Shown one piece after another: positions 1 to 63,423 of a stretch of DNA of 64,000 bases. This stretch comes from Candidatus Rokuibacteriota bacterium (GTDB taxonomy: Bacteria > Methylomirabilota > Methylomirabilia > Rokubacteriales > CSP1-6). How positions within the stretch are numbered: position 1 is the first letter of the stretch; each line of letters opens with the position of its first letter. A program made the position numbers and the translations under genes. The notes under the pieces were generated by a model that was not told the DNA's origin, ran no database searches, and was given only the letters and a program-made list of their open reading frames with translations. Location of the stretch: the NCBI GenBank assembly GCA_003221515.1, contig QHSI01000133.1:3530-67529 (forward strand), given 5' to 3'.

Positions 1-396
1 GCGGAGCGCCGCCTCGCGGAGGTCCTCCGACGGGACGCAGCCGGCGACCTCGACGATGACCGGCGTGCCAGTCCACAAGGGGACGCGGGCGGTCGGGGTG
101 ATCGGCAGGCTGAACAGCGACGGGTCACGGAGGACCGCATCCGAGACCTGAGACTGCACGATGACTGCCTCGCCTTCGCGCCGGCGCTTGAGGTCCAGCA
201 TCTTCACCAGCGCCCACAGGACCACGAGCAACACGATCGCCGAGCCCACCAGGGCAATCGTTTGCGCCCCCCCCGAGGGAGACGTGCTGGAGGGAGCACC
301 ACTACCGACCGTCTGGGCCCAACCGTGTCTGGTAAGCCCGATGAGCACGAGCGCACTCGCGACGAGAGCCGCACGAACTTCCTTGATCGTCTTCAT
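1..396 (-). CDS. hypothetical secreted/membrane protein; 3' end cut by window edge
   Basis: ATG at 394-396 (minus) preceded by GGAGGTGA Shine-Dalgarno; translation MKTIKEVRAALVASALVLIGLTRHGWAQ... has N-terminal signal/TM segment; frame open to position 1 so not listed in ORF track. Confidence 0.45.
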   Translation of the reverse strand, partial: MKTIKEVRAALVASALVLIGLTRHGWAQTVGSGAPSSTSPSGGAQTIALVGSAIVLLVVLWALVKMLDLKRRREGEAVIVQSQVSDAVLRDPSLFSLPITPTARVPLWTGTPVIVEVAGCVPSEDLREAALR

Positions 397-583
397 GGCG
401 TCACCTCCCACGTGGGCGCAGCGAACTGCGAAGTCCGTGCCAGCGAGCAGCTCGGGCTTCGCGGAACGCATCGAGATTCCTGCGGAGTTGACCGCGCCCT
501 GGCCTGGCATTCGGGTTGCTCCCCTCGGTCGTCAGCAGTGGCAAGGGTGCTCGCAATCACCGCACCCAACGAAAGGAGGCGCG

Positions 584-1519: not shown

Positions 1520-2407
1520 TTGGTCGTCGTGCCTCTCGTCGTGGCCACCGCCGATTGCAGCAGCAGTCGGATCGTGTTGCCACTGTCCCTCGATTCCCTC
1601 GAGCTCGCCGACCCGTCCGACGCTCACGCGCTCGACACGACCCAGGCGGCGGTTCGCGGTATCGCCGCCATCATCGCCAGGACGTTCAGCCTTCCGGTTC
1701 CGCGTCAGGTGACGGTGTTCGTGTACGACGGACGTCGCGCCTTCGAGCAGGGACTGATCTACGATGCCCGCGTCTCTCCGGTGCTGGCAGCAAAGCTGAG
1801 CGACTTCGCGATCGGCGTCGGCGCGCAGGGGCAGGTGCTCCTGAACGCAGACGTCAGCGACTGGACCTCACGCGAGCGGCTGCGCCTCATCGCTCACGAG
1901 CTCACGCACGTGTCGCAGATCGAGCTCGCCGGCGGCGAGGGCCGCGGCGAGCAGTGGCTCGCCGAGGGCATGGCGGAGTGGATCGCCTTCGCGACGCTGG
2001 AGCGACTCGGGCTCGACTCGGTGAATAGACGGCGCCAGAGCGCGACCTCCGGCGTCCGGCATCACGCGACTCTGCTCCGGGGGGGCCTGGACCTCGAGGC
2101 GCACGGAACGCCTCGCGCCTTCACCGCATGGCACCTGCGCGAGGGCACGCGGGCGACCTACCAGCTCACGTTCCTGCTGGCCGACTTTCTGATCACGCGC
2201 AAGGGCCTCGACCGCATGAAGGCGTACTTCACCTCGTTCCGGGGATCGCTGGATCGTCAGGTGAATTTTCAGCGCGCGTTCGGTGGAACGATCGCGGCCT
2301 TCGAAACCGACGTGCTCGCCGCCCTGAGCGCCACGACGGACCCCACCCTGGCAGGCGCACCCACCGTCACGGCGCCGCCTCCGCGCTCCGAACCCTCCGC
2401 TCCCTGA
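1520..2407 (+). CDS. putative secreted zinc metalloprotease-like protein (HExxH)
   Basis: ORF 1520..2407 (TTG start); hydrophobic N-terminus; HELTH motif (HExxH) plus downstream EGMAEW; no specific family recognised. Confidence 0.5.
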   Translation: MVVVPLVVATADCSSSRIVLPLSLDSLELADPSDAHALDTTQAAVRGIAAIIARTFSLPVPRQVTVFVYDGRRAFEQGLIYDARVSPVLAAKLSDFAIGVGAQGQVLLNADVSDWTSRERLRLIAHELTHVSQIELAGGEGRGEQWLAEGMAEWIAFATLERLGLDSVNRRRQSATSGVRHHATLLRGGLDLEAHGTPRAFTAWHLREGTRATYQLTFLLADFLITRKGLDRMKAYFTSFRGSLDRQVNFQRAFGGTIAAFETDVLAALSATTDPTLAGAPTVTAPPPRSEPSAP

Positions 2408-2437
2408 TACGGCCGCGCGTCCGCGCGGCGACGCTCT

Positions 2438-3820
2438 TCAGGACGGCGTTGAATCCGGCGGCGTTTGGCCCGTTCGTCCCGGATTGTCGTCGGCCCGGCC
2501 GTGCAGCTTGCGGTAGAGCGAGGCCAGGCTGATTCCCAGCAGTCGAGCGGCCTGGCGCTTGTCGGACTGCGTGGCCAGGACGTCCAGCAAATGCTGGCGC
2601 TCGAACCGCCGGACGGCCCCACGCAAGTTCTGCGGAGGCGCGCCGTGGGACGCCGCCGGATCGGCCGAGAGGTCGCGAAGAGAGACCAGCTCACCTCCGC
2701 CGAGCACTATGGCCCGCTCGAGCACATGCTCGAGCTCGCGCACGTTGCCCTTCCATGGCCGCCCGATGAGTGTCCAGAGCGCCTCGCGCTCGACGCCGAG
2801 GCAGCGGGTGCCGAGCTTGGTGTTGAGCCGCTCGACCAGGTGATCGACGAGGAGCGGGATGTCCCCGCGGCGCTCGCGGAGCGGCGGCACCTCCAGGTGC
2901 ACGACGTTGAGCCGGTAGAAGAGATCTTCGCGGAAGCGACCCGCCTCGACTTCGCGCGCGAGATCGCGGTTCGTGCTGGCGATGATCCGAGTATCCACCT
3001 GCACCGGCCGGGTGCCACCCACCGGCAGGACGTGCGTGTCCTCGATGACCCGGAGCAGCTTGACCTGCAACGGCAATGGCAGCTCGCCGATTTCGTCGAG
3101 GAAGAGCGAGCCGCGGGTCGCCGCGACGAAGAGCCCGGGATTGGCCTGCACCGCCGTCGTGAACGCGCCCCGCACGTGCCCGAAGAGCTGGCTCTCGAGC
3201 AACGCCTCCGGGATCGCGCCGCAGTTGATCGCCACGAAGGCGTAGTCGTGCCGCGCGCTCGCGTCGTGGATGGCGTGCGCGACCAGCTCCTTGCCGACGC
3301 CGCTCTCACCGGTGACCAGCACGTTGCTGGGCGCCCGCGCGGCCAGCGTGATCTGCTCGCGCACGGCGCGGATCGCGTCGCTCTCGCCGACGAGTGTGCC
3401 GCCGGCGGGTCTCTCCTGCAGCGCGCGGGGCACGAGCCGATCCTTCCAGATCGTCTCGCGGTACTGGAGCAGGCGCCGCACCCGCTGCTTGAGGTCCTCG
3501 ATCTCGAAGGGCTTCTCGAGGAAGTCGCAGGCACCGCCCCGAAGCGCGCTGATCGCGGTCTCGAGCGCGGCGTACGCGGTCATCACGATGACCGACGCAC
3601 GCGGGTTGAGCAGGCGCGACCGCTCGAGTACTTCGAGCCCGTCCACGCCGGGCATGACGATGTCGGTGAGAATTACGTCGAAGTCCTCCTGCTCGACGCG
3701 GGACAGTGCCTCTTCCCCGCTCCCAGCCGTCGCGACCTCGTACCCCTCGGCCGTGAGCGTGAAGGACAGAATCTCCTGGATCGCCTTTTCATCGTCCACG
3801 ACAAGGATCGATGCGGTCAT
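2438..3820 (-). CDS. sigma-54-dependent response regulator (NtrC family: REC + AAA+ sigma54-activator + Fis-type HTH)
   Basis: ORF 2438..3820; N-terminal receiver (DDEKAIQEIL..., DIVMPGVDG); Walker A GESGVGKE; GAFTGA-region reads GAFTTA; ESQLFG, FLDEIGELP, GNVRELE motifs; C-terminal HTH. Confidence 0.9.
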   Translation of the reverse strand: MTASILVVDDEKAIQEILSFTLTAEGYEVATAGSGEEALSRVEQEDFDVILTDIVMPGVDGLEVLERSRLLNPRASVIVMTAYAALETAISALRGGACDFLEKPFEIEDLKQRVRRLLQYRETIWKDRLVPRALQERPAGGTLVGESDAIRAVREQITLAARAPSNVLVTGESGVGKELVAHAIHDASARHDYAFVAINCGAIPEALLESQLFGHVRGAFTTAVQANPGLFVAATRGSLFLDEIGELPLPLQVKLLRVIEDTHVLPVGGTRPVQVDTRIIASTNRDLAREVEAGRFREDLFYRLNVVHLEVPPLRERRGDIPLLVDHLVERLNTKLGTRCLGVEREALWTLIGRPWKGNVRELEHVLERAIVLGGGELVSLRDLSADPAASHGAPPQNLRGAVRRFERQHLLDVLATQSDKRQAARLLGISLASLYRKLHGRADDNPGRTGQTPPDSTPS

Positions 3821-3909
3821 CCTCAGAACCTGCCTTCATTTCCAGAACCGACGCAGCCCTGGCGCTGCCGGGAACGTCCGACGCGGGCAATCCCGCTCTG
3901 CGAGGACCC

Positions 3910-3926
3910 GGGAACCATGCGTTCCC
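3910..3926. promoter_or_regulatory. perfect inverted repeat GGGAAC-N5-GTTCCC, candidate enhancer-binding site
   Basis: Located ~190 bp upstream of the predicted sigma54 promoter at 4102-4116, in the divergent region next to the NtrC-type activator gene. Confidence 0.3.
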
Positions 3927-4101
3927 AGGCGTGAGAACGATACCTCGCCTGGCGGCGTTATACAAGAGTAAGTCGTGATCTCACCCCTGAGAAACGCTCG
4001 GGGTTTCCCTTCCAGAAGTCGCGAACTCGACCATGCTCCAACGACGGTCTCCCGGGAGAATATCTCTTCGTTTTCACGATGTTCAGATCGGCTCGTCTGT
4101 C

Positions 4102-4116
4102 TGGCATCGCCCTTGC
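4102..4116 (+). promoter_or_regulatory. sigma-54 (-24/-12) promoter candidate for the DUF1111 gene
   Basis: TGGCAT-cgccc-TTGC matches TGGCAC-N5-TTGC with exact spacing, ~70 nt upstream of the ATG at 4187; adjacent divergent sigma54 activator gene. Confidence 0.55.
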
Positions 4117-4186
4117 GCCCTCTGCGGGCTTGCACGGGAATTGTGCCGTGCACTTCGCCAGGTCCACGCAGGAGCAAGGAGCAGAA

Positions 4187-5572
4187 ATGAGCAAGGTGAA
4201 ATTGCGACTTCTGGTGCTCGCGGCCACGTTGCTACTGCTCGGATTGTCCGAGGGCCTGCACTCGAGGACCAGCATGGGAATCGGTCCCGGCTACAAGGAT
4301 CCGGGCGTGCGCACAGGAGACGCGGGCGCCGGCGGGTCGCTCCCCGGCCTGACGCCCAAGGAGGAGATGTTTTTCCAGGCCGGCCTCGTGGAATTCGAAG
4401 AGGCCGAAGGAGTGGGTGACGGTCTCGGCCCGCGTTTCAACCTCGACAGCTGCGGCGGTTGCCACATCCAGCCGGCCACCGGCGGCACCTCACCAGCGAT
4501 GAACCCGCAGGTCGCCGTCGCTAGCGCCTTCGGCGCCAAGAACAAGGTGCCGTCGTTCATCAAGCTCGAGGGGCCGATCCGTGAAGCGCGGTTCCAGTAC
4601 AAATTCGACGGCAGCCGGGACGGTGGCGTCCACTCGCTCTTCGTCATCAGCGGCCGCGTCGACGATAGCGGCAACGCCGCCGGCTGCACCGCGGTCCAGG
4701 AGGACTTCGAGAAGCAGGTGGCGTTCAACAACATCATCTTCCGCATCCCCACTCCCACGTTCGGGGTCGGGCTCATCGAGCAGATTCCGGATCAGACCAT
4801 CATCAACAATATGAATACCAACGCGTCGACGAAGCTGTTGTTCGGGATCTTCGGCCGCCCGAACCGGAGCGGGAATGACGGCACGATCACCCGATTCGGC
4901 TGGAAGGCCCAGAACAAGTCGCTCCAGATCTTCTCGGGTGAGGCGTACAACGTGGAGATGGGCATCACGAACGAGGAGTTCCAGCAGGAGCGCGACGAGA
5001 ACTCGACCTGTCAGTTCGCGACGGTGCCGAACACCGTGGTACCGACGGAAGTCCCACCGGGCTCACCGGACGCCGACTTCTCCAGCGCCGTCACGAAGTT
5101 TTCCTTCTTCATGCGGTTCCTGGCCCCGCCCATGCCGTCGACGACCGACCCGGGTGGCCCGGACTCGATCAGCAGGGGCCGGCAGATCTTCGCGAACGTC
5201 GGGTGCGCGCTCTGCCACACGCCGAAGCTCAAGACCGGCCCACTCGCCACGGTCGGTGCTCTCCGGGACCAGGACGTCAACCTCTTCTCGGACTTGCTGG
5301 TCCACAATATGGGGCCGGGGCTGGCCGACGACATCGTCCAAGGGGTTGCGCGGGGCGATGAGTTCCGGACCGCGCCGCTCTGGGGCCTCGGCAAGCGAAT
5401 CTTCTTCCTGCACGATGGCCGCACGAATGACCTGGTGCAGGCCATCCTCGCCCATAGCAGCGGCGGCAACTTCCAGTTCGGGCCGTCGGAGGCGAACGCG
5501 GTGATCGGCAGGTTCAAGAGTCTCGGCGACACCGACAAGCAGCATCTGCTGAACTTCCTGCGCTCGCTCTAG
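4187..5572 (+). CDS. di-haem cytochrome c oxidoreductase, DUF1111 family (putative peroxidase / thiol oxidoreductase)
   Basis: In-frame part of ORF 4079..5572 starting at ATG 4187 (RBS GGAGCAAGGAGC); signal peptide MSKVKLRLLVLAATLLLLG; two CxxCH haem motifs (CGGCH, CALCH); ~460 aa as typical for DUF1111. Confidence 0.7.
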   Translation: MSKVKLRLLVLAATLLLLGLSEGLHSRTSMGIGPGYKDPGVRTGDAGAGGSLPGLTPKEEMFFQAGLVEFEEAEGVGDGLGPRFNLDSCGGCHIQPATGGTSPAMNPQVAVASAFGAKNKVPSFIKLEGPIREARFQYKFDGSRDGGVHSLFVISGRVDDSGNAAGCTAVQEDFEKQVAFNNIIFRIPTPTFGVGLIEQIPDQTIINNMNTNASTKLLFGIFGRPNRSGNDGTITRFGWKAQNKSLQIFSGEAYNVEMGITNEEFQQERDENSTCQFATVPNTVVPTEVPPGSPDADFSSAVTKFSFFMRFLAPPMPSTTDPGGPDSISRGRQIFANVGCALCHTPKLKTGPLATVGALRDQDVNLFSDLLVHNMGPGLADDIVQGVARGDEFRTAPLWGLGKRIFFLHDGRTNDLVQAILAHSSGGNFQFGPSEANAVIGRFKSLGDTDKQHLLNFLRSL

Positions 5573-5586
5573 TCGCCGAGCCGGCC

Positions 5587-5618
5587 GGGGCGCGCCGAAG
5601 CGCGCCCCCTTCGTTTTT
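5587..5618 (+). terminator. rho-independent terminator of DUF1111 gene
   Basis: GGGGCGCGC-cgaa-GCGCGCCCC stem-loop followed by CTTCGTTTTT, 15 nt after the stop codon. Confidence 0.75.
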
Positions 5619-5619
5619 A

Positions 5620-5670
5620 GCCGTGCCTCGGCCCGCGGGGTCCCGCCCCGCGACGGCTTGCGGCGCGGAC
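5620..5670 (+). repeat. REP-like GC-rich palindromic element, copy 1
   Basis: gccgtgcctcggcccgcggggtcccgccccgcgacggcttgcggcgcggac; shares consensus GCCTCGGCCGGCGGGGCCCCAGCCCCGCGACGGCCTGCGGCGCGCAC with copies at 20691, 37517, 38268, 42291, 42594, 42657; sits between convergent gene ends. Confidence 0.65.
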
Positions 5671-5671
5671 A

Positions 5672-6142
5672 TCACGCCATCGTCAGTCCGCGTCGCGCCA
5701 GCTCGCCCTCGAGATTCAGCTCGCTGGTCCGGGCCGGCACGCCGTCGGGCACCGTCCAGAAGATCTCGAACTCGAGCCCATCCGGATCCTTGGCGTACAG
5801 CGAGAGGCTGACGCCGTGGTCGGAAGAACCGACGAGCGCGCGGGCTTCGATCAAGCGTTTCCGGGCACGGGCCAGGTCGGGCAGCTCGTCGACCTCCCAC
5901 GCCGCGTGGTACATGCGCGCCACGCGCTCGTCGGGGCGCGCGACGCCGGCTTGCTCGAAGAGGCCGAGGTGGTGGTCGTCGGCGCTGCCGGGGATCTTCA
6001 GGAAGGCCGCGTTCGGATATCGCTTCGTCACCTCGAAGCCCACGACGTCGCAGTAGAAGCGCACGCTGCGCTCGACGTCGGAGACCCAGAGCACCAGGTG
6101 CTGCAGCCGCTTGAGTCCCGTCCCCCGCGCGGTCGCGCTCAC
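5672..6142 (-). CDS. VOC / glyoxalase family protein
   Basis: In-frame part of ORF 5672..6187 starting at GTG 6142 (GGAGG 7 nt upstream; GTGA overlap with upstream stop); HLVLWVSDVERSVRFY glyoxalase-type N-terminus. Confidence 0.65.
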   Translation of the reverse strand: MSATARGTGLKRLQHLVLWVSDVERSVRFYCDVVGFEVTKRYPNAAFLKIPGSADDHHLGLFEQAGVARPDERVARMYHAAWEVDELPDLARARKRLIEARALVGSSDHGVSLSLYAKDPDGLEFEIFWTVPDGVPARTSELNLEGELARRGLTMA

Positions 6143-6477
6143 CGGGACGCCTCCGGATATTCGACGCTCACGATGATGGCGGCGCACGCGATGAGGGTGT
6201 CGGAGCCGGCGCGCAGACCGCCGCTGACGGCGCGCACGGTGACCTCGCCGTGCGGCAGCTCGCGTCGGACCACGTCGACCTTGACCGAGTCCGGGTCGGG
6301 GACACCGATGGTCACGTCGACCAGCATCTTGCCGCCGCGCTCGCGGACCTCCTGGAACAACGGCAGGCTCGAATGCCGGATGGCGTCCGAGACGGCGCGG
6401 CAGGCCGCCTTGGTGGCATCCCGCCCGTGCACGTCGACACCCATCCCAAACTCCAGCACGCTCGGCTTAGCGGTCAC
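6139..6477 (-). CDS. conserved hypothetical protein, Lin0512-like family
   Basis: ORF 6139..6477, 112 aa; N-terminal LEFGMGVDVHGRDATKAA motif recalled from memory as characteristic of the Lin0512 family. Confidence 0.5.
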   Translation of the reverse strand: MTAKPSVLEFGMGVDVHGRDATKAACRAVSDAIRHSSLPLFQEVRERGGKMLVDVTIGVPDPDSVKVDVVRRELPHGEVTVRAVSGGLRAGSDTLIACAAIIVSVEYPEASR

Positions 6478-6512
6478 GCTCCACCTCCGTGGGCAGTTCA
6501 GCTCGTCGGCAG

Positions 6513-8057
6513 CTAGTCACTCGTTCCGGTCCGCGTCGCGTCGACGAACTGCTCGGTCGCGTCGTCGATGGCGCGGCCGTCGCGACCACGCGGTTGAAGC
6601 ACATAGAGCCCGCGCGGGTCCACCGTCGCGCGTGCCGGCGGCGGCAGCCGCATCTCGTAGGCGACCGGCCGCTGATGATCGGCCAGCAGCAGCGTCGGAT
6701 CGAACACCTTGTTGAACTTCCAGAGGCTCCGGAAGAAATTCGTCTGCCCACGCATCAGGTGACCCGCCACGATCGACGCCATCTCTCGCAGAGCCTTCCA
6801 GCCGAGATGCTTCATGGCGAGGACGCGCTGCGTGCGCACGAGCTCCTCGTAGAACTCGGCCAGGGGCAGACGGGTGGGCAGCACCGCGTGCTGGATGTCG
6901 TAGAGGCGATAGTCCCGCGTCTGGACGCGGCGCGCCTCCGTGTGCCAGGTTTCCGTGCCCGGGTAGGGTGTGTTGACGGAGATGTTGACGATCTCGGGGA
7001 TCTCCAAACACCACTGGCGGATCACCTCGAACCGCTCGTGGTCCCACTCCGGGTCGGCGATCAGGTTGATGGCCACGTTGATACCGAGGGAGCGGGCGAA
7101 CTCGAGGGCCTCGAAGGCACGGCCGAGCGAGATCCGCTTGCGATACTTGCGCAGCCCCTCCTCGTCGATGGCCTCGAGCCCGAGGAACATGTAGCTCAGG
7201 CCCAGGCGGGTCCAGAGCTTGAAGACCTCCTTGTTGCGGAGCAGGACGTCGCCGCGCGTCTCGAGATAGTACTGCTTGCGGATCCCGCGCCGCGCGACCG
7301 CCTCGCCGATCGCGAATCCGTGCTGGGCCTGCACGAATGCCACGTCGTCGACGATGAAGACGCCGGGCTCCCGGACCCGCGCCAGGTCTTCCACCGCGCG
7401 CTCCGGGCTGACGATCCGATAGCTCCGGCCGTAGAAGGTCCACGCGCTGCAAAACGAGCAGTCCCACGGGCAGCCGCGGGCGAACTCGATCGACGCGCAT
7501 GGCTCGAGCATGCCGAGGAAGTAGCGGCGGCGATGGCTCAACAGGTCGCGGGCCGGGACGAGATCGTCGAGGCTCTCCACCAGCTGCGGCGGCGGGCCCT
7601 CGCCGTCGAGGGCGACGACGCCGGCCACCCGTGTGATCGCCCGCCGATCGTGCTCGACGGCGTCGAGGAGCGGCGGTATCGACGCCTCCCCTTCGCCTCT
7701 GACGACACAATCGATCGCGCCGCGCGCATGCTCGAGCAGGTCGCGCGCGACGAAGGACGCGCTGTGGCCTCCCACGAGCACGAAGGTCTCCGACCGCCGG
7801 GCCCGCGTCAGTTTGGCCAGATCGACGATCTCGGGGACATTCGCCAGGTAGTTACACGAGAACGCCACCACGTCCGGCCGCCAGCGGTCGACTAGCGCGA
7901 AGTAATCCTCATGCGACGCGACCTGCAGGTCGAGCAGGCGCACGTCGTGCCCCGCACGACGGACCGCGGCAGCGACCAGCTCCAGCCCCAGCGGCTCGAG
8001 GCGAAGGAAGATCTTCGTGTACAGCAGCGGGCCCGGGTGGACGGCCAGGAATCGCAT
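6513..8057 (-). CDS. B12-binding radical SAM protein (class B rSAM methyltransferase-like; N-terminus resembles hopanoid C-3 methylase HpnR family)
   Basis: In-frame part of ORF 6513..8081 starting at ATG 8057 (MRFLAVHPGPLLYTKIFLRLEPLGLE); N-terminal B12-binding domain; CPWDCSFCS = CxxxCxxC radical SAM cluster motif. Confidence 0.8.
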   Translation of the reverse strand: MRFLAVHPGPLLYTKIFLRLEPLGLELVAAAVRRAGHDVRLLDLQVASHEDYFALVDRWRPDVVAFSCNYLANVPEIVDLAKLTRARRSETFVLVGGHSASFVARDLLEHARGAIDCVVRGEGEASIPPLLDAVEHDRRAITRVAGVVALDGEGPPPQLVESLDDLVPARDLLSHRRRYFLGMLEPCASIEFARGCPWDCSFCSAWTFYGRSYRIVSPERAVEDLARVREPGVFIVDDVAFVQAQHGFAIGEAVARRGIRKQYYLETRGDVLLRNKEVFKLWTRLGLSYMFLGLEAIDEEGLRKYRKRISLGRAFEALEFARSLGINVAINLIADPEWDHERFEVIRQWCLEIPEIVNISVNTPYPGTETWHTEARRVQTRDYRLYDIQHAVLPTRLPLAEFYEELVRTQRVLAMKHLGWKALREMASIVAGHLMRGQTNFFRSLWKFNKVFDPTLLLADHQRPVAYEMRLPPPARATVDPRGLYVLQPRGRDGRAIDDATEQFVDATRTGTSD

Positions 8058-8138
8058 CGTTTGACGCCTCCAGTACGTCAATTGTCCACCCTTGCGCCAC
8101 TGGGGCCGACCGAATCGGCCGGCGGTCTGCGCGCCCGG

Positions 8139-15800: not shown

Positions 15801-17750
15801 CTACGCTTTATTGCCCCAGAGGCTCTTGGAAAGCCAGTCCAGCCCGAGGTCCTTCAGCGTCTTGGGCAGGGGCTTGCCGGTCTTGCGGTCGAATCCGACC
15901 TCGGAGTACCAGGTATCGAGCATTTTCTCCCACTGGGCCCGGATGGCCTGGCCCTTGGCCGGCCCGTCCACCGGCGTGGAGCCGTAGCGCGTCGACGGAT
16001 ACTCCATCGCGCCCGTGTGACCGCAGCGGAGCGCGGTGGCGCGATTGATGACGGCGGTGCGCTTCCCGAACCGAAGCGCCTCGTCGACCGTGAAGGCCCA
16101 GCCCGTCGCCGCCGACAGCGCGCGACAAACGTGCTCGAGCCGGGTCCGTGACGTGAAGATGCAGATGCCGAGCGAGTCCTCGAAGCTCCGACGCCCGCGC
16201 AGCCCGGCAACGTACTTGGCCACCTGCTCGCCGTCGAAAGGATTGATTCGCGCGGGCTGGCCGATCTCGGTCGGGTGGACGGGGTTGCCGGTTTCCATCG
16301 TCGCCGTGGAGGACGTGCAGGTGTCGAGCATCTCCTCCCAACGAGAGCGGTGATCGTGGCCGCGCGGCGTGGCGCCCTTCTCGATGTAGATCGCGCACTC
16401 CTTGGCCGGCCCGCCGAGCTTCTCAGCGGCGCGCTTGACGCCCTCGGCCAAGACGTTCCCGAAGCCTTCGCGACGGCTGACCATCTGGAGCAAACGGTGC
16501 GCGCCCTTGACGTCGCCCCACTTGAGCTCGAAGCCGAGCTGCTCACGGGTGATGTAGCCCTTCTCCTGGCACTCCATGACCCAGCCGCACAGCCAGCCCC
16601 ATTCGTTGACATCGACACAGGCCCGATCGCACTCGGTGTTGAGCCACGCGACGCTGTCGCGGTCGGCCGCCCCGATCGCCCAGCCGCACCCGGACCAACC
16701 TTCGTACTCCGGCTCGTCGACGATCTTGCCCTTCTGATCGCCGTGGCGGATGACGGACATGTGGCAGTGGTGCATGCCACACGCGTTGCACTGGTGGCCG
16801 CGGTGGTCGAAGTTCTCGCGGAGCTTCGGCGCCTCCCACACGCTCAGGTCGGCGCCGGCCACGTTCGACGTCAGGTTGGTCGTATAGTTCTTGATCGGCA
16901 GCGCGCCCATCTTCGAGAGGTTCACCACGCCCGGCAGCGTCCCGTACTCGTACAGCGAGCGCGCGGAGGCGTCAGTGCGCAGATCGTGGGCGATCTCGTC
17001 GGCGGCCTGCACCACGCCGCGCGGATCGGCGGCGCGCAGCGACTTCGTCCCCTTCACGATCGCGACCGCCTTGAGCCGCTTCTTGCCCATGACGGCGCCG
17101 CAGCCGTTCTTGGACGCGACATGGCCGTAGTCGCCCTGGATAGCGGCGAAGCGCACGAGGTTCTCGCCGGCGGGACCGATCGAGTAGACCGAGAGCTGGT
17201 GGCCCGCGAGCCCCGTTTCCTTGTAGAGCGCTCCCTGCGTCTCCCACGTGTCGAGACCGACCAGCGAGCGCGCGTCGCGCAGCTCCACGACATCGTCGTT
17301 GATGTACAGATAGAGCCAGTCCTTGGATTGGCCCTGGACGATGATCGCGTCGTATCCGCAGTACTTCAGATTGGTACCGAAGAAGCCGTTGGCCTGCGTC
17401 GAGGTGGGGCCGTTGGTCCCGGCGCCGATCGTGCACACGGTGAGACCGCCCGTGCCCCACACTGGCAGGCCGGCCAGCGGTCCCGTCGCCAGTACGAGCC
17501 GGTTGTCGGGATGGTCCCAGGAGACGTTGCCCTTGCCATCTCTGGTCGCGGTCTCGCGGTAGAGGATCATCGCGCCGAGGCCGACGCCCCCGATGAGCTC
17601 CCGCATCGTCTCGGGACTCCACGGCTCGGCGCGGCAGGTGCGGCGCGTGAGATCCACGCGCAGGAGGTTGCCGGCGTAGCCGCCGGGGCGCGCGGTCGCC
17701 GCGGACTTCGTCGTGGGCTTCGCAGGTGCGGTCGAGGTCGCTGGAGTCAT
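15801..17750 (-). CDS. aor: aldehyde:ferredoxin oxidoreductase (tungsten-type AOR family)
   Basis: ORF 15801..17750; AOR N-domain motif GYAGNLLRVDLT, cluster-ligand region CNACGMHHCH, AOR C-domains; N-terminal 20-aa S/T/A/P-rich extension; ATGA overlap with upstream gene. Confidence 0.9.
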   Translation of the reverse strand: MTPATSTAPAKPTTKSAATARPGGYAGNLLRVDLTRRTCRAEPWSPETMRELIGGVGLGAMILYRETATRDGKGNVSWDHPDNRLVLATGPLAGLPVWGTGGLTVCTIGAGTNGPTSTQANGFFGTNLKYCGYDAIIVQGQSKDWLYLYINDDVVELRDARSLVGLDTWETQGALYKETGLAGHQLSVYSIGPAGENLVRFAAIQGDYGHVASKNGCGAVMGKKRLKAVAIVKGTKSLRAADPRGVVQAADEIAHDLRTDASARSLYEYGTLPGVVNLSKMGALPIKNYTTNLTSNVAGADLSVWEAPKLRENFDHRGHQCNACGMHHCHMSVIRHGDQKGKIVDEPEYEGWSGCGWAIGAADRDSVAWLNTECDRACVDVNEWGWLCGWVMECQEKGYITREQLGFELKWGDVKGAHRLLQMVSRREGFGNVLAEGVKRAAEKLGGPAKECAIYIEKGATPRGHDHRSRWEEMLDTCTSSTATMETGNPVHPTEIGQPARINPFDGEQVAKYVAGLRGRRSFEDSLGICIFTSRTRLEHVCRALSAATGWAFTVDEALRFGKRTAVINRATALRCGHTGAMEYPSTRYGSTPVDGPAKGQAIRAQWEKMLDTWYSEVGFDRKTGKPLPKTLKDLGLDWLSKSLWGNKA

Positions 17751-30211: not shown

Positions 30212-33200
30212 TTACCCGAAGTCGTGTGAGGGGACGTGATGGCCGAGGGCTGGCAGGCTCCGCACCGTGTTCGCGCGGACGGAGATGACCCCGTCCTGCC
30301 GCTGCGCGATCCCCGTCACCAGAAGGTATGGCTCGGCCACCAGCGCGACACGATGGCGCGCGAAAATCGGCGGCGTCACGATCACGTTCGCGATCCCCGT
30401 CTCGTCCTCCAGGGAAAGGAAGACGAAGCCCTTCGCGGTGCCCGGCCGCTGGCGAACGATGACGCTGCCCGCCACCTGGACTCTGGCGCCGTCCTCCACG
30501 CCGGCCAGCTCGCGCGCGCTCACCACCCCCAAGCGCCGGAGCGACGCGCGGCGCAGCGCCATCGGATGGCGGCCGAGCGTCACACCCGTGCCGGCGTAAT
30601 CGGCGGCGAGGCGCTCGATGTCCGTCATCTCGGTCAACGGGCTGGGCTCGCGCGGCGGATCCGTGAACAACGGGCCGGGATCCGACACCGCCGCCGCCCA
30701 GAGGTTGGCCCGGCGGCTCCCGCCGAGCGGCGCGAGCGCGCCGATGGCCGCGAGCGTCTCCAGTTCGTCCCGCCCGAGCTCGGCCCGGCGCGCGAGGTCG
30801 TGGACGGACGCGAATGGCCGCGCCTCGCGCGCCCGCACGATCGCACGCGCCGCCCGCGCGCGCAGGCCCTTCACGTACCGTAACCCCAGCCGCACCACGA
30901 CGGCGCCGTCGGCGCGCTCGAGCACGCACAACCACGGGGAGCGCGTGACGTCGATCGGCAGGATCCGCAGGCCGTGGCGCTGCGCGTCCTTCACGATGGT
31001 CGCCGGGTGATAGAACCCCATCGGCTGGTTGTTGAGGAGCGCCGCGTAGAACGCCGCCGGATGGTGGACGCGCAGGTACGCACTCGCGTAGGCGAGCAGC
31101 GCAAAGCTGGAGGCGTGCGAGTTGTGGACGACCAGGTCGTTCGCGAGGAAGTTGTGATCTCCCTCGATATGGAGGTCATACGTTTCCTGGATCCCGACGG
31201 GATCGATGGATACGATTCGATCCCAGTACAGATCAGATTCCGCCAGGCGGCCCAGCTCTGGCGAGTCGAAGTACCGAGCCAGCCGAGCAATGACCCAGCG
31301 ACGATATCCTTGCTTCGACGCATCCGGAGTCACGAGTGCACGCAAGGCGAGCTTCGCCCCCTGACCGAGCTCATCCCAGGTGACGCCTCGATGCTTGCGC
31401 TCACGATCGATGAGGGTTTTGACCGCGACCGGAACGACGTCATGGGATGAGCGTCCCCAAGCGCCTGTCAGCGAGAGATCCTTGGCCATCTGCTGCTTTC
31501 GACCATCCAGAAACCGGCGCGCGACTCGATGGTAGAAGCGCCGCAAATTCCCCTGGCCGGTGACGGTCACGACGAAGCTGGCGACGCGCCGCCCTCGATA
31601 CGGGTGAGTGCGCGAATACAGACGCGACACGATCCCGAGCCCAAGCAGGAGATGTTGGACGTCTTCGGCCAGGCGACGAGAAACCGTGTCGTACGACGCG
31701 TGACCCGTCCGTGACAGAGAACCATCGCCTTCCCATAAACGAGCGAGCAGCAACGCCTGATCGGCGGCGCAAAGCTCGAACACTTCCTCGGGCAATCGTT
31801 TCGCCCGCGCCGTGGCGCCCCAGAGCCCGAGTTTTCGGGCCCACTGGACGGCTCCGATCGGCGCCGACGCGCCGTTGCGACGGACGTGCACGCTGTAGCA
31901 GCTGCGGTGGCGAGCGACGGTCGCTCGCGTATTGGCAAATTGCTGCACAGCCTCCACGAACTCGTCACGATACTGAGCGTCCGTCGTGTAGAAATAGAAC
32001 GTGCTCGGGTGGCACAGCTTGCCTTCGGCGATCAGGTCGGCAAGCACGATCAGCTGGTAACGAGGCCAGCGCCGACGCCCCAGCGTGGGGAGCGTACGGG
32101 CTGCAGCAATACGGTCGCCCGCCCTGAGACTCACCAGGGCGCGCCAGCCCTGCATCGTGAGCAGTGGATGCTCGGCGGTCGCCACGATCTCTCGACCAAG
32201 CGCCGTACGAACGCGATAGACCATCCGGCGTCCGCTCGGCGTGGCCGCGAGCACGCGGCGCTTCTGCAGCCTCATGTTCGCGTCGCAGGCGAGCGTGCTC
32301 TCGACACGTACCCGGCCGCTCACGATGTCCTCGATCGCGGCCCAACGTCCCCGGTCGGCATCGATCACGCGCGTCTCGCCGACCACACATTCCGGGAACC
32401 CGTACAGCGCGAACGCGGTGATGGAGCGCACGATCTCTTCAGCGGCGTCGCCGTGGATGCCCTGGCGCGCCATGCCCGCGCGCAGCTTCGTCTCCACCTC
32501 GGCCATGAGCCGCTCGCTGCGCTTGAAGCCGAACGCCCGCCGGAGCTCCTCGGCCTCCGTCGCGGTGAAGCCGGCCGTCACCATCGCCATCCGCAGCAAC
32601 TGCTCCTGGAACAGCGGGACGCCGAGCGTGCGGCGGAGGATGGGCTCCAGGCTCGGGTGCGGGTACGTCACCGGCTCGCGCCCGCGCCGGCGGTTGATGT
32701 AGGGATGGACCATGTCGCCCACGATCGGTCCGGGGCGGATGATCGCGACCTGCACGACGAGGTCGTAGAATCGCTCGGGGCGGACGCGCGGGAGCGTCGC
32801 CATCTGCGCGCGGCTCTCGACCTGGAACACGCCGATGGTGTCGGCCTCTTGCAGGCTCCGATAAACGGCCGGATCGTCCGGGGGCAGCCGCGCCAGATCT
32901 ACCTCGCCGCCGGATTCGCGGACGAGCGTCAGCGAATCCTGGAGCACCGACATCATCCCGAGCCCCAGCAGATCCACCTTGACGATACCGAGCGCCGCGC
33001 AGTCGTCCTTGTCCCACTGCACGACGACGCGCCCCGGCATCGTCGCCGGCTCGAGCGGCACCACGTCGTCGAGCCGGCCCGCGGCGATGACCATGCCTCC
33101 CGAGTGCTGGCCGAGGTGGCGCGGCAGATCCTGGATCCGCGTCCAGAGAGCGGCGAAGCGCCGGATGCGCGGGGAGCTCGGATCGCAGCCGGCCTCCGGG

Positions 33201-34585
33201 AGATGCTTCGTCAGGAGCTCGTTCGGATCCTGATAGCCCCAGTTCGCGACGAGCTGGGCGAGCCGGTCCCGCATGTCGCCCGGAAGCCCGAGCGCCTGGC
33301 CGACTTCGCGGGCGGCGCTCCGGCCTCGATAAGAAATCACGTTGGCGGTCATCCCAGCGCCGAGGCGACCGTACCGCCGATAGACGTGCTGGATGACCGC
33401 TTCTCGGCGCTCACCGCTCGGCAGATCCAGATCGATATCAGGCCATTCACCCCGCGCTTCGCTGAGAAAGCGTTCGAACAGCAGCTCCATGCCGACCGGA
33501 TCCACCGCGGTGATGCCGAGGGCGTAGCAGACCGCGCTGTTGGCCGCCGAGCCGCGGCCCTGCACGAGGATGTCGTGGGTCCGGCAGTGCTCGACGATGT
33601 CCCACACGATCAGGAAGTAGCCCGCGAGATCGAGCCGCCCGATGAGCTCGAGCTCGTGAGCGACCTGACGGCGCGCGCGCGCGGCCAGCGGGCCCGTGCC
33701 ATAGCGCGCGCCCACACCGCGCCGGGTCAGCTCGCGCAGGTAGCCGAGCGGCGTCTGGCCCGGCGGCAGCGGAAACTCCGGGAACCGGTACCCGAGATCC
33801 TTCAGCGTGAAGGCCAGCCGCAGCGCCAGCTCACCGCTGTTGGCGAGCGCGTCGGGAAGATCACGGAAGAGCTGCGTCATCTCGACCCCGCCCTTCAAGA
33901 CGCGCTCGCCGTTGGCCAGCAGCCGGCGGCCGGCGCGATCGAGATCGGTCTTCTCGCGGATGCACGTGAAGACGTCGGCGAGCGGACGGCCCTCCGGGCG
34001 CGCGAAGAGCGGCTGGTTGGAGGCGACGAGCGGCACGCCGGCTCCCCGGCCCAGCGCCACCAGCGCCTGAAGCATCGCCTCCTGCTCGCGGAGGAAGTGT
34101 CGCTGGACCTCGACGAAGCAGCTCGAACGCCCAAAGATTGCCACGAGGCGGTCCAGGCACGCCCGGGCGCCCTCGCCGTCGCCGGCGGCGAGCCGCCGCG
34201 CGAGCGGACCGCGAGCTCCCCCGGTGAGACACACGAGTCCAGCGGCGTACGGCTCGAGGTCGTCGAGCGTGGTCGCGGCGGCGCCCTTGGGGGCACCGAG
34301 CTTCATTCGTGTGATCAGCCGGCAGAGGTTCTGATATCCCTCGCGATCCTCCACCAGCAGGGGTAGCCGCGAGCCGTCGGCGAGCGTGATCTCGCTGCCG
34401 ACGATCGGCTTCACCCCCGCGTTCAGAGCCGCGCCGGCTAGCCGAGCCGCTCCGTACACGCCGTCGCGATCGACCAGGGCGACCGCCGGCATGTCGAGCC
34501 GAGCCGCCTCGGCAGCGAACGCCTCGGGATGCTCGGCGCCCTCGAGGAACGAGAACGCCGACTGCGCGTGGAGCTCGATGAACAT
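30212..34585 (-). CDS. dnaE2: error-prone DNA polymerase DnaE2 (ImuC), interrupted by an in-frame intein
   Basis: ORF 30212..34585, 1457 aa; PHP domain N-terminus MFIELHAQSAFSFLEGAEHPE; Pol III alpha core; 1034 aa once the intein is removed; downstream of imuA-imuB. Confidence 0.9.
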   Translation of the reverse strand: MFIELHAQSAFSFLEGAEHPEAFAAEAARLDMPAVALVDRDGVYGAARLAGAALNAGVKPIVGSEITLADGSRLPLLVEDREGYQNLCRLITRMKLGAPKGAAATTLDDLEPYAAGLVCLTGGARGPLARRLAAGDGEGARACLDRLVAIFGRSSCFVEVQRHFLREQEAMLQALVALGRGAGVPLVASNQPLFARPEGRPLADVFTCIREKTDLDRAGRRLLANGERVLKGGVEMTQLFRDLPDALANSGELALRLAFTLKDLGYRFPEFPLPPGQTPLGYLRELTRRGVGARYGTGPLAARARRQVAHELELIGRLDLAGYFLIVWDIVEHCRTHDILVQGRGSAANSAVCYALGITAVDPVGMELLFERFLSEARGEWPDIDLDLPSGERREAVIQHVYRRYGRLGAGMTANVISYRGRSAAREVGQALGLPGDMRDRLAQLVANWGYQDPNELLTKHLPEAGCDPSSPRIRRFAALWTRIQDLPRHLGQHSGGMVIAAGRLDDVVPLEPATMPGRVVVQWDKDDCAALGIVKVDLLGLGMMSVLQDSLTLVRESGGEVDLARLPPDDPAVYRSLQEADTIGVFQVESRAQMATLPRVRPERFYDLVVQVAIIRPGPIVGDMVHPYINRRRGREPVTYPHPSLEPILRRTLGVPLFQEQLLRMAMVTAGFTATEAEELRRAFGFKRSERLMAEVETKLRAGMARQGIHGDAAEEIVRSITAFALYGFPECVVGETRVIDADRGRWAAIEDIVSGRVRVESTLACDANMRLQKRRVLAATPSGRRMVYRVRTALGREIVATAEHPLLTMQGWRALVSLRAGDRIAAARTLPTLGRRRWPRYQLIVLADLIAEGKLCHPSTFYFYTTDAQYRDEFVEAVQQFANTRATVARHRSCYSVHVRRNGASAPIGAVQWARKLGLWGATARAKRLPEEVFELCAADQALLLARLWEGDGSLSRTGHASYDTVSRRLAEDVQHLLLGLGIVSRLYSRTHPYRGRRVASFVVTVTGQGNLRRFYHRVARRFLDGRKQQMAKDLSLTGAWGRSSHDVVPVAVKTLIDRERKHRGVTWDELGQGAKLALRALVTPDASKQGYRRWVIARLARYFDSPELGRLAESDLYWDRIVSIDPVGIQETYDLHIEGDHNFLANDLVVHNSHASSFALLAYASAYLRVHHPAAFYAALLNNQPMGFYHPATIVKDAQRHGLRILPIDVTRSPWLCVLERADGAVVVRLGLRYVKGLRARAARAIVRAREARPFASVHDLARRAELGRDELETLAAIGALAPLGGSRRANLWAAAVSDPGPLFTDPPREPSPLTEMTDIERLAADYAGTGVTLGRHPMALRRASLRRLGVVSARELAGVEDGARVQVAGSVIVRQRPGTAKGFVFLSLEDETGIANVIVTPPIFARHRVALVAEPYLLVTGIAQRQDGVISVRANTVRSLPALGHHVPSHDFG
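31121..32389 (-). mobile_element. 423-aa intein with LAGLIDADG homing-endonuclease domain inside DnaE2
   Basis: Begins with Cys (GFPE|CVVGETRV), block B TAEHPLLT, LAGLIDADG-like LADLIAEGKL and LARLWEGDGS, terminal DLHIEGDHNFLANDLVVHN followed by +1 Ser; splicing would restore the conserved GFPESHASSFA polymerase motif. Confidence 0.85.
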
Positions 34586-50509: not shown

Positions 50510-53194
50510 TCAGGCGTCCGGGTCGTCCTCGACCGACGCGCCGGGCTTGGCAGGGAGCTTCACCGTGAAGGTGGAGCCGACCCCGAGCTCGCTCTGGACG
50601 CCGATCGTTCCGCCGTGGCTCTCCACGATCCCCAGGCTCACGGACAGTCCGAGACCGGTCCCGCTGACCTCGGGCTTGGTCGTGAAGAACGGCTCGAAGA
50701 TACGGCCGAGGTGCTCCGGCGCGATGCCGGTGCCGGTGTCCGCCACCTCGACCCGCACCATGCCGCCGCTGAACGACGACCGGAGCGTCAGGGAGCCGCC
50801 CCGCTCTTGCATGACGTAGACGGCGTTGTTGATGAGGTTCAGGAACACCTGCTTGATGCGCGGCACGTCGACCTCGACCGGCGGCAGGCCCTCGGCGTAT
50901 TCCTCGTGCAGCGTGATCGAGTCGAAGGCGCCCTGGCGGCGCACCATTACCAGCGTCTGCTCCAGGACTTGATTGAGGTCGGTGACCTGGGGAACGAACT
51001 CGCGCTGGCGGCTGAAGTGCAGGAGGTCGCGCACGATGTCGCGCGCGCGCCCGGCCTCTTCCTGGATCAGGTCGAGCTCTTCGCGCATCGGCTGACCGTG
51101 CGGCACCTGCTCGGCGAGGTACGATGCGAAGCCGAGCACGCTGGTCAGCGGATTGTTGATCTCGTGAGCGATGTTGGCGGCGAGCTCGCCGATGGCCGCG
51201 AGCTTCGTGGACTGGATGAGCTGGGCCTGCGTGCGCTGGAGCTCGGCGTACTGCTGCTTCACGCCCTCGTAGAGACGCGAGTTCTCGCTCGCGACCGCCG
51301 CCTGGAGCGCGATGCCCTCCGCGAGCCGGAGCTCGTCCGGTGTAACGCGGTGCTGCTCCTTCAGCCAGACGATCACGAAGCCGCCAATGTTCTCGCCCTT
51401 CCACCGCATCGGCTGGATGAGCAATGACTTGTGCGGGATAAGCCGGCCTAGTGGCCGGTCGAACCGCGGGTCGGCCTGGCTGTCCGGGGAGCAGATTGGC
51501 TCGGCCACGCGGCGCCACTCGGCGGCGGCCGGGTTCAGCGCCCGTAGATTTTCGCCGTCGAGCGCCTGCAGCAGGTCCTTGGGAACGCGATAGCCGACGA
51601 TCGGCAGGAAGCGGCCGTCCTCGCTCTGGAGCCAGGCGCCGCCGGTGTCGGCGCCGAGGGCGCGCACCATCGCCCGGGTCGTCCGTCTCAAGACCTCGGT
51701 CAGCTCGAGCGTCGAGCTGGCGTCGTGGCTGACGGCCAGCAGCGTCTCGGTGTGCCGCAGCCGTTCCTGCGTCTGCTCGTAGAGCCTGGCGTTGCGAATC
51801 GCCGCCGACGCCGACGTCGCGAGCGCCTCGCCCAGCGCCTGCTCCTCCGGCGTGAACTCGTGACGCGGCCGGTAGAGGATCGTGAGGACGCCCACCAGCT
51901 CGCTCTCGAGGAAGAGCGGGAGCCCCAGGTAGGACACGAGCTGTTCGCCCTCGAGCCACTCCGTGTACTTGACACGCGGCTGCGCCGCGATGTCGCTGTA
52001 CGACACCGGCTTCTGATGCTTGACGATCCAGCCGAGGTATCCGTCGCCGTCCTCGACGCCGTGCTCCTCGACCTCCATGGGCGCCCGGGTGACGCCGGCC
52101 TGGGCGTGGAGGCGGAAGACGCCCGGGGCTTCGTCCCGGATGAGGATCCGGGCCACGTCGGCGCCGAACCGGCTGCGCACGAGCTCGGCGAGCCGGTGGA
52201 GCACCTCGGAGACCTGGAGCGTCTCGGTGAGCAGGCGCCCCGACTCCACGAGGCTCTCCTGCTCGGCGGCGCGGCGCATCACGCCCTCGTAGAGCCGCGC
52301 GTTCTCGACGGCGATCGCGACCTGGTCCGCCACGATCTTCAGCAGCTGCTCCTCGTCGGCCTTCGCGCCCGGCGGCAGCACGTGGCGCGCGATCATCACG
52401 CCGAGCTGCCGGCCGCGCACGTTGAGGGGCAGCGTCCACTCGACCTCGGTCCAGTCGTCGGCCGTCGCGGCGCCGGTGCCGGCCAGGACACTGCGCGGCT
52501 GCGCGCCCGCCTCGCTGTTGACCGTGACGTTGACGCCGGGCGGCTCGCTCAGCTCGACGCGGAGGCTGGACGTCCCGATCGACTGCGCGAGGCCCCCCAG
52601 CAGCTTCTCGAGCATCCCCGCCACCCCCATCTCGGAGGTGATGTCCTGCAGCGAGCGGTGCAGGTCCTCGAGCTGCGAGGCCCGCCGCACGAAGTGCTGG
52701 TTCAGCCGCTTGAGCTCTTCGACCTGGTTGAGCAGGCGGTAGACGAGCCGCTGGTTGAGCTCGCGGAGATAGACGCCCTCGTCGCGGCCTTCGACCCGCT
52801 CGCGCTTGCCACCCAGGAACTCGGCCACCTGGCGTGGGAAGGCGTCGACGTCGATGGGCTTCTGGATGTAGCCGTCGCAGCCGGCCACGAGGGTCCGCTG
52901 GCGATCGCCTTGCATCGCATACGCCGTCACCGCGATGACCGGCGTCGCGGCGAGGTTCGGGAACGATTTCAGGATCGCGACGATCTCGTACCCGTCCACG
53001 CCCGGCAGGTTGATGTCGAGCAGGATCAGCGCCGGCTCTTCGCGAATCGCGGCCTCGATCCCGGTCAGGCCGTCCTCGGCGTCCACGATCGCGTAGCCGG
53101 CCGCCTCCAGGACCGCCCGCACGAGCATACGGTTCTCGCGGTTGTCCTCGATGTAGAGGATCTTCACCTTCTGATCGGCTGGCCGTCCCGGCAT
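50510..53194 (-). CDS. hybrid signalling protein: N-terminal receiver + three GAF domains + HisKA/HATPase histidine kinase
   Basis: ORF 50510..53194; REC (KILYIEDNRENR..., DINLPGVDG), GAF regions, H-box HEINNPLTSV, ATPase G-boxes DTGTGI and GTGLGLSV. Confidence 0.9.
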   Translation of the reverse strand: MPGRPADQKVKILYIEDNRENRMLVRAVLEAAGYAIVDAEDGLTGIEAAIREEPALILLDINLPGVDGYEIVAILKSFPNLAATPVIAVTAYAMQGDRQRTLVAGCDGYIQKPIDVDAFPRQVAEFLGGKRERVEGRDEGVYLRELNQRLVYRLLNQVEELKRLNQHFVRRASQLEDLHRSLQDITSEMGVAGMLEKLLGGLAQSIGTSSLRVELSEPPGVNVTVNSEAGAQPRSVLAGTGAATADDWTEVEWTLPLNVRGRQLGVMIARHVLPPGAKADEEQLLKIVADQVAIAVENARLYEGVMRRAAEQESLVESGRLLTETLQVSEVLHRLAELVRSRFGADVARILIRDEAPGVFRLHAQAGVTRAPMEVEEHGVEDGDGYLGWIVKHQKPVSYSDIAAQPRVKYTEWLEGEQLVSYLGLPLFLESELVGVLTILYRPRHEFTPEEQALGEALATSASAAIRNARLYEQTQERLRHTETLLAVSHDASSTLELTEVLRRTTRAMVRALGADTGGAWLQSEDGRFLPIVGYRVPKDLLQALDGENLRALNPAAAEWRRVAEPICSPDSQADPRFDRPLGRLIPHKSLLIQPMRWKGENIGGFVIVWLKEQHRVTPDELRLAEGIALQAAVASENSRLYEGVKQQYAELQRTQAQLIQSTKLAAIGELAANIAHEINNPLTSVLGFASYLAEQVPHGQPMREELDLIQEEAGRARDIVRDLLHFSRQREFVPQVTDLNQVLEQTLVMVRRQGAFDSITLHEEYAEGLPPVEVDVPRIKQVFLNLINNAVYVMQERGGSLTLRSSFSGGMVRVEVADTGTGIAPEHLGRIFEPFFTTKPEVSGTGLGLSVSLGIVESHGGTIGVQSELGVGSTFTVKLPAKPGASVEDDPDA

Positions 53195-53207
53195 TCGACC
53201 TTTTCTC

Positions 53208-55990: not shown

Positions 55991-56008
55991 TCCCCCAGCC
56001 GTCCTGCG

Positions 56009-56680: not shown

Positions 56681-56756
56681 GACATCGCACTCCTTGTCAG
56701 TGGCCGCATGATCCGGGGTGGATCCCCGGCCCTCCCCTCGCGCACGTGTCGCGCGC

Positions 56757-58343: not shown

Positions 58344-58355
58344 GATGCGCGCCTC

Positions 58356-60298: not shown

Positions 60299-60307
60299 AA
60301 GCGCCCT

Positions 60308-62073: not shown

Positions 62074-63423
<1,350 letters not shown>

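Follow-up and report, generated by a model that had tools for sequence, protein, structure and literature searches.

How is a solitary gene for a secreted di-haem protein switched on in an uncultured soil bacterium? The question is raised by a 64,000-nucleotide stretch of Candidatus Rokuibacteriota contig QHSI01000133.1 (the window; 69% G+C), whose host belongs to the uncultured soil Rokubacteria (Methylomirabilota), and in which a gene of the DHOR/DUF1111 family (4187-5572, + strand) and a gene coding for an NtrC-type activator (3820..2438, - strand) are arranged back to back with 366 nt between them. The pair is a self-contained sigma-54 regulatory unit of the NtrC/sigma-54 class, conventional in mechanism and built from well-conserved parts. 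We consider it probable, with good confidence, that the activator, acting at two upstream inverted repeats (sites A and B) and through a sigma-54 promoter, drives a monocistronic gene for a secreted DHOR protein.

The analysis draws on a comparison set of 172 related loci, assembled from a genome scan, a metagenome scan and exact-protein look-ups; individual loci are given L numbers, and 168 of them were used to count promoter motifs and to cluster neighbouring genes. DHOR homologues are abundant in soil metagenomes; the nearest relative returned by the metagenome scan with DHOR was no more than 67% identical, and the 81-97% relatives were obtained by the exact-protein look-ups. Two intergenic alignments were made, one of the close clade (81-97%) and one of orthologues whose proteins are 58-97% identical. 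A protein 98% identical to the activator is encoded on contig QHST01000128 of Candidatus Rokuibacteriota metagenome-assembled genome GCA_003220525.1, where the gene order is as in the window and the intergenic region is 95% identical.

The promoter element TGGCATCGCCCTTGC (= TGGCATcgcccTTGC), a -24/-12 motif of the form TGGCAT-N5-TTGC, is located at 4102-4116 on the + strand, as the original prediction had placed it, about 70 nt before the DUF1111 start; its GC doublet ends 70 nt 5' of the ATG at 4187. It is oriented towards DHOR, its GG and GC are one helical turn apart, and it matches nine of the ten specified positions of the consensus TGGCAC-N5-TTGC. Two copies of TGGCAY-N5-TTGC are present in the 64 kb, against 0.17 expected, a number reached in only one of 100 shuffles, and both are on the correct strand and 64-70 nt before a start codon. 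Of the 168 loci, 31 have a strict version, TGGCA(C/T)-N5-T(T/C)GC, in the 500 nt preceding DHOR, where fewer than 0.3 would be expected by scaling from the chance rate in the window. No locus that retains the divergent activator orthologue is without the motif, down to approximately 58% DHOR identity, and its TGG, CA and CTTGC positions are invariant in the 58-97% alignment although the mean column identity there is 51%, and likewise invariant in the 81-97% clade. The distance from the GC doublet to the ATG is 57-75 nt in the motif-bearing loci with a placeable start codon. A scan of 2000-7000 by E. coli rules, which may not be those of the host, found no sigma-70-like promoter. Taking C4116 as position -12, transcription is predicted to start at about 4127-4128, giving a leader of approximately 60 nt.

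The divergently transcribed gene, correctly recognized beforehand as that of an NtrC-type activator, codes for a 460-residue enhancer-binding protein of the NtrC family, with a receiver (REC) domain, a sigma-54 AAA+ domain, an AAA lid (AAA_lid_14) and a Fis-type HTH_8 domain. The corresponding Pfam matches are Sigma54_activat (PF00158; 1.5e-65, spanning profile positions 1-167 of 168), Response_reg (8e-31) and HTH_8 (1.4e-7). The receiver residues D9, D10, D53, T81 and K103 are conserved in nine orthologues, the AAA+ domain has a Walker A (GESGVGKE) and a Walker B (LFLDEIGEL) motif, and the recognition helix ISLASLYRKL is invariant in nine orthologues of 61-98% identity. The protein falls below every NCBIfam equivalog cut-off, including those of NtrC (392 vs 559 bits), AtoC (409 vs 714), ZraR (365 vs 760) and GlrR (347 vs 763). 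Among the 168 clustered loci no other gene recurs beside this DHOR subfamily, and all four look-ups begun from activator homologues (75-98% identity) landed beside DHOR.

No histidine kinase gene is adjacent to the activator gene in the window, where the nearest ones are at 50.5-55.9 kb, or in the twelve relatives inspected for it (L001, L003, L019, L042, L051, L096, L162, L163, L169, L170, L171 and L172); the remark in the original prediction that the cognate kinase is not adjacent therefore holds well beyond the window, and the activator is an orphan response regulator in all loci examined. Two of the relatives show variations at this gene. In L025 the orthologue (2250-3522, - strand) seems to be split or frameshifted, with tblastn segments covering residues 1-301 and 303-425, and the upstream activating sequence (UAS) and the -24/-12 element are intact. 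In L042 a glutathione peroxidase gene (1458-2204, - strand) is directly downstream of the activator orthologue on the same strand, a single hint at oxidative stress and no more.

Where would the activator bind? Comparison of related loci shows TTCTCA-N4-TGAGAA, an inverted repeat of 16 bp, to be the conserved upstream element. Site A (ATCTCAccccTGAGAA, 3978-3993), the predicted main enhancer palindrome, is conserved and is centred at about -142 from the predicted start; site B (TTCCAGaagtCGCGAA, 4010-4025), a degenerate second copy 32 bp downstream of A, is centred at about -110. The two form a tandem 124 and 92 nt upstream of the TGG in the window; the interval from the start of site A to the -24 TGG downstream of it is 99-124 nt in every orthologous locus, and a partner site 31-32 bp downstream of site A is found in the window and in all 18 distinct tabulated loci, with site B nearly invariant within the clade of the window. 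Perfect copies of the repeat are present in L003, L019, L025, L042, L051, L084, L096, L162 and L169. All 11 loci with an activator orthologue have a copy with no more than two mismatches in the 400 nt preceding DHOR, compared with a background of 0.02 per kb. Sites with at most one mismatch number 15 in approximately 1.07 Mb of sequence, and 14 of them precede a DHOR sigma-54 promoter by 67-180 nt. The 64-kb window holds only two copies at this stringency, both in this intergenic region. A third copy in the close clade, site C (TTCCCAggcgTGAGAA, 3922-3937), has one mismatch to TTCTCA-N4-TGAGAA and is centred at about -198; it is clade-specific, being present in all eight close relatives and absent from distant loci, and a repeat search recovered the relation of sites A and C independently. 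Literature searches returned nothing relevant on a TTCTCA/TGAGAA motif with enhancer-binding proteins, on Rokubacteria with sigma-54 or on DHOR, and we propose TTCTCA-N4-TGAGAA as a previously undescribed, putative recognition motif of the activator. A terminator-like match at 3985-4003 was discarded, as it overlaps site A, has no + strand gene upstream of it and is not kept in distant loci.

The original prediction had placed the enhancer elsewhere, at a perfect palindrome, GGGAAC-catgc-GTTCCC, at 3910-3926, about 190 bp further upstream. The palindrome is indeed there, preceding the -24 element by 176-192 nt, and has perfect arms that are kept exactly or nearly so in six of eight close relatives and half-sites that resemble the GTTCYC/GRGAAC half of the conserved motif. 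That the activator binds it as an enhancer is nevertheless improbable. The left arm is lost in L162 and degenerate in L167, and both keep TTCyCr-N4-yGAGAA at that place despite the loss or decay; there is no counterpart in the 58-70% orthologous loci (it is absent from L003, L019, L025, L042 and L051), which retain the promoter and sites A and B. When the 366-nt intergenic region is shuffled with dinucleotides preserved, 71% of the shuffles also contain at least one perfect inverted repeat whose 6-nt arms are separated by 0-12 nt; for this particular palindrome with no more than one mismatch, 0.14 copies are expected in the window and at least one appears in 11 of 100 shuffles. The right arm, GTTCCC, is the left half of site C, and it is the only arm within a conserved element. 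The comparison points to a palindrome that overlaps a genuine element and is not itself the functional unit.

A second alternative accepts the repeats and assigns them to another protein: the TTCTCA-N4-TGAGAA copies would be operators for a different DNA-binding protein, or would serve autoregulation of the activator gene only, and the DHOR promoter would be fired by an enhancer-binding protein encoded elsewhere, such as the one at 62074-63462. We regard this, too, as improbable, although several observations lend it some weight. Loci L026 and L084 carry TTCTCA-type sites and have no adjacent activator gene, and site C overlaps a putative promoter of the activator gene (see below). DHOR can moreover be placed under other activators, as other Rokubacteria have sigma-54 promoters with different repeats at their DHOR genes; this is so for most DHOR loci that have a sigma-54 promoter and lack an adjacent activator orthologue, L026 and L084 excepted. 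Set against these are the joint occurrence of the repeat and the activator orthologue in all 11 loci, the fixed placement of the repeats 67-124 nt upstream of the -24 element, in tandem at an interval of 31-32 bp as is typical of NtrC-type enhancers, an invariant recognition helix in parallel with an invariant site, and the location of sites A and B nearer to the DHOR promoter than to the activator gene.

The loci with other repeats deserve a description of their own. Strict -24/-12 motifs are present upstream of DHOR in L008, L010 and L083, in L012, L085, L090 and L095, in L013 and L088, in L082, and in L086, mostly Rokubacteria; none of these has an adjacent activator gene, and their upstream repeats are either TGTCA/TGACA dyads or three copies of CGCCGCTGACG. 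Judging by these motifs, sister lineages seem to have placed the same DHOR gene under different sigma-54 activators. The remaining alternative, that the -24/-12 match is fortuitous, with DHOR fired by an unrecognized sigma-70-type promoter and the adjacent activator controlling something else, can draw on the lack of an established Rokubacteria promoter consensus and on the reliance of the sigma-70 scan on E. coli rules, but is very improbable indeed given the invariance of the motif amid intergenic DNA that has otherwise diverged, its excess among the DHOR loci and the spacing to the ATG that is held wherever the start can be placed.

The gene under control codes for a 461-residue di-haem protein with an N-terminal hydrophobic Sec signal peptide and two CxxCH haem motifs, C89GGCH and C340ALCH, so that its identification as a DUF1111 gene with two haem sites stands. 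The PF06537 match scores 117.3 bits against a cut-off of 22, with only profile positions 183-499 aligned, corresponding to the C-terminal two thirds; no NCBIfam model matches the protein. Residues C89, C92, H93, C340, C343, H344 and M375, together with many glycines, prolines and arginines, are invariant in 121 homologues. The start is assigned to the ATG at 4187, and not to the first in-frame ATG, at 4079, because of the invariant AAGGAGCAGAnATG, the signal peptide and the non-triplet indels between 4079 and 4186 in relatives; it is preceded by 5 nt by the ribosome-binding site AAGGAG (4176-4181, + strand), with AAGGAGC invariant in nine sequences.

An AlphaFold model of DHOR built from a 121-sequence alignment has a mean predicted local distance difference test score (pLDDT) of 84 and a predicted template-modelling score (pTM) of 0.83; with a 15-sequence alignment the pLDDT was 39. 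When the model was compared with the Protein Data Bank (PDB) using Foldseek, all nine matches with an E-value of 0.07 or below were bacterial di-haem cytochrome c peroxidases (CCPs) or the CCP-like subunit of hydrazine synthase, the named ones including MacA, CcpA, the Paracoccus and Pseudomonas CCPs, BccP and the Nitrosomonas enzyme. A single-sequence PDB search with DHOR found no match, and a profile search gave no more than marginal matches to di-haem peroxidases, with the second CxxCH and an FRxxPL...HDG region aligned with 2c1u at an E-value of only 0.25.

Downstream of the stop codon, an intrinsic terminator (5587-5618, + strand) is formed by GGGGCGCGC-cgaa-GCGCGCCCC, with nine G-C pairs, followed by the T-run CTTCGTTTTT. 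The genes next downstream of it are convergent, and with a strong terminator directly after the stop codon the DHOR transcription unit therefore consists of a single gene.

Put together, these elements suggest the following sequence of events. The orphan response regulator (3820..2438) would be phosphorylated on D53 by an unlinked histidine kinase, and its dimers would bind the inverted repeats A (3978-3993) and B (4010-4025), which, at 32 bp apart, would present them on the same helical face. The bound dimers would build an AAA+ oligomer that DNA looping brings to the sigma-54 RNA polymerase at TGGCAT-N5-TTGC (4102-4116), and ATP hydrolysis would open the promoter. The predicted transcript of approximately 1.5 kb would run from about 4128 to the terminator at 5587-5618 and carry DHOR/DUF1111 alone, and the protein, exported by way of its signal peptide, would mature in the periplasm into a c-type oxidoreductase with two haems, of the bacterial cytochrome c peroxidase/MauG type.

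Several observations weigh against this model, at different steps. The sigma-54 contact loop of the activator is GAFTTA, a departure from the canonical GAFTGA; orthologues have GAFT(T/N/G/S)A, keeping the F and T, and variants at the fifth position such as GAFTDA and GAFTHA were judged compatible with activation in a survey of Desulfovibrio (PMC4641369). Site B in the clade of the window is mismatched at five of 12 consensus positions. The TTCTCA-type sites of L026 and L084, the latter with a variant -24 element (TGGCAG), lack an adjacent activator gene, and binding by the activator is therefore supported by co-occurrence and not proven. No RpoN box lies within the 64-kb window, and the presence of rpoN would follow only from the activator genes, two in number, and from three -24/-12 motifs that are conserved. 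The fold matches of DHOR are remote, with E-values of 7e-3 to 7e-2 and target-normalized TM-scores of 0.30-0.46, and peroxidase activity is a guess. The original prediction had offered a dedicated sigma-54 two-component input as a clue to the function of DUF1111; a dedicated NtrC-type response regulator is supported, and the clue itself is weak, as in no locus examined does an adjacent kinase gene point to the input signal.

The intergenic region contains other elements of note. The most conserved block in the close clade is ATCCCGCTCTGCGAGGACCC (3890-3909), invariant at 14 of its 20 positions across the 81-97% relatives and present once in the window; it falls within the activator gene's leader or promoter. 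RNA folding of the activator leader is not significant (z = -1.5). The activator gene may have a sigma-70-type promoter, TTGTAT-17 nt-TATCGT (3937-3965, - strand), with conserved ACGATA and ACAAG(A) segments and a match to the E. coli consensus at only seven of 12 positions; this promoter was not listed by the promoter scan of 2000-7000, and we assign it with low confidence. Site C overlaps its possible -10/+1 region, which suggests that this clade-only site is probably autoregulatory. Between the enhancer and the promoter there is a T-rich block, TTTTCAcgatgTTC (4071-4087), of which TTTTCA (4071-4076), about 26 nt upstream of the TGG, is invariant at six of six positions in the close clade; distant loci are AT-rich at the equivalent place, and the block could act as an additional half-site, or as a bend or an element like that of integration host factor (IHF). 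By inspection, only weak matches to the IHF consensus WATCAA-N4-TTR are present between enhancer and promoter, and an IHF site there was rejected. A perfect 12-bp palindrome, TCTCCCGGGAGA (4048-4059), is not kept even in the close clade and was put down to chance. In the DHOR leader, a possible hairpin, TGCACGG-gaattgtg-CCGTGCA (4131-4152, + strand), has weak evidence in its favour: its pairs are mostly kept, but the changes are one-sided only and the covariation, with a term of +0.75, is not convincing. A permissive Rfam scan of 3700-5800 gave no match.

Elsewhere in the window, a second divergent pair of sigma-54-type promoters is located at 397-583, with TGGCACGGACTTCGC at 442..428 (- strand), 32 nt before the ATG of gene 396..1, and TGGCATTCGGGTTGC at 505-519 (+ strand), 64 nt before the gene for a small secreted protein (584-919), which is followed by a lipoprotein gene (947-1213). 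L172 and L170 have kept both promoters, and L171 has kept them in part. No TTCTCA-type site was found near these promoters at 428-519, which implies that another activator operates there. At about position 450 the window is without a segment of approximately 112 nt that is present in L172 (13209-13510), L170 (9075-9374) and L171 (8888-9274), where it holds a conserved GCAACTTCTACAC...GTAAGG...TACAC block between the divergent promoters; the block is possibly their enhancer, and its absence from the window could reflect a deletion or an assembly difference. The lipoprotein gene is followed by a hairpin with perfect 14-nt arms (1221-1253) and by three tandem 23-nt repeats, CGGnAAAGAnCCGCAGTGTGCTC (1303-1371), with GGTAAGAATT occurring twice, at 1279 and 1403; together these (1221-1412) lie upstream of a metalloprotease-like gene (1520-2407).

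On the far side of DHOR, the gene at 6513-8081 (- strand) codes for a B12-binding radical-SAM protein that scores 890 bits against a cut-off of 650 for HpnR (hopanoid C-3 methylase), and is syntenic with DHOR in L001, L162 and L169-L172. An aldehyde:ferredoxin oxidoreductase (AFOR_N and AFOR_C domains), a member of a family of tungsten/molybdopterin enzymes, is encoded at 15801-17750 (- strand), and at 30212-34585 (- strand) the gene for DnaE (DNA polymerase III alpha) is split by an intein with a LAGLIDADG homing-endonuclease domain. A signalling cluster at 50510-63462 includes a REC-GAF-GAF histidine kinase (50510-53194), a seven-transmembrane (7TM)-GAF histidine kinase (53208-55856), a REC-HD protein (58733-60298) and the second sigma-54 activator (62074-63462).

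The analysis provides a cis-regulatory map, comprising promoter, enhancer consensus and spacing, leader and terminator, for an uncharacterized gene of an abundant uncultured soil phylum, and defines a candidate recognition motif for an uncharacterized NtrC-family activator. The motif can be used to search for the regulon in whole Rokubacteria genomes, and the regulon together with co-occurrence could point to the kinase and hence to the signal. The analysis also sets a stand-alone, sigma-54-gated DUF1111 subfamily apart from the members encoded in iron-uptake operons. In mechanism there is no departure from the NtrC paradigm, and the novelty is modest. A broader reading, which we put forward tentatively and think rather less likely than otherwise, is of a dedicated single-gene regulon widespread in soil Rokubacteria, in which the orphan NtrC-type regulator and the undescribed TTCTCA-N4-TGAGAA site tie a possibly redox- or peroxide-related signal to this DUF1111 subfamily in a role distinct from iron uptake, with sister lineages rewired to other sigma-54 activators; the enzyme would then be a tightly gated, condition-specific periplasmic oxidoreductase.

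Compared with known systems, the DHOR protein resembles classical DUF1111 members in its PF06537 match, its two CxxCH motifs and its predicted periplasmic location. The classical members are putative di-haem peroxidases of iron-uptake operons with the order imelysin (EfeO-like) - DUF1111 - DUF1513 (PMC3143127; bioRxiv 10.1101/072470), and one DUF1111 member is reported to be peroxide-induced. The DHOR gene of the window differs from these in being monocistronic, with a sigma-54-type promoter, and outside any iron-regulated operon; neither the window nor the 168 clustered loci have a neighbour of the imelysin, EfeO or DUF1513 kind. On this evidence it represents a stand-alone DUF1111 subfamily, which, lacking iron-uptake partner genes nearby, should not inherit the iron-uptake annotation. 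The remote fold resemblance is to the di-haem CCP/MauG superfamily (CcpA, MacA, BccP and hydrazine synthase gamma), from which the protein differs in being approximately 140 residues larger, in sharing 12-19% identity and in having no CCP_MauG Pfam match.

On the regulatory side, AtoC, ZraR, GlrR and PilR-type systems have the same domain order, a small or single-operon regulon and an upstream enhancer, and AtoC is the highest-scoring NCBIfam model (409 bits). Their cognate kinases are encoded next to them; the activator described here is an orphan. From NtrC itself the module departs in that there is no adjacent NtrB-like kinase, the contact loop is GAFTTA, and the target is a periplasmic haem protein and not nitrogen assimilation. 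NtrC recognizes TGCACC-N5-GGTGCA, whereas the site in the window is TTCTCA-N4-TGAGAA. At glnAp1 and glnL, an activator site overlaps a second promoter and permits negative control, and site C, over the putative activator-gene promoter, may be placed to similar effect. The likeness to NtrC lies in the combination of REC, AAA+ and Fis-type HTH domains and in the geometry of the enhancer, which is almost the same. At E. coli glnAp2 the centres of NtrC sites I and II are -140 and -108 (PMC5159524), and the window has, likewise, two dyad sites 32 bp apart, here centred at about -142 and -110, with further weaker sites possible as at glnAp2.

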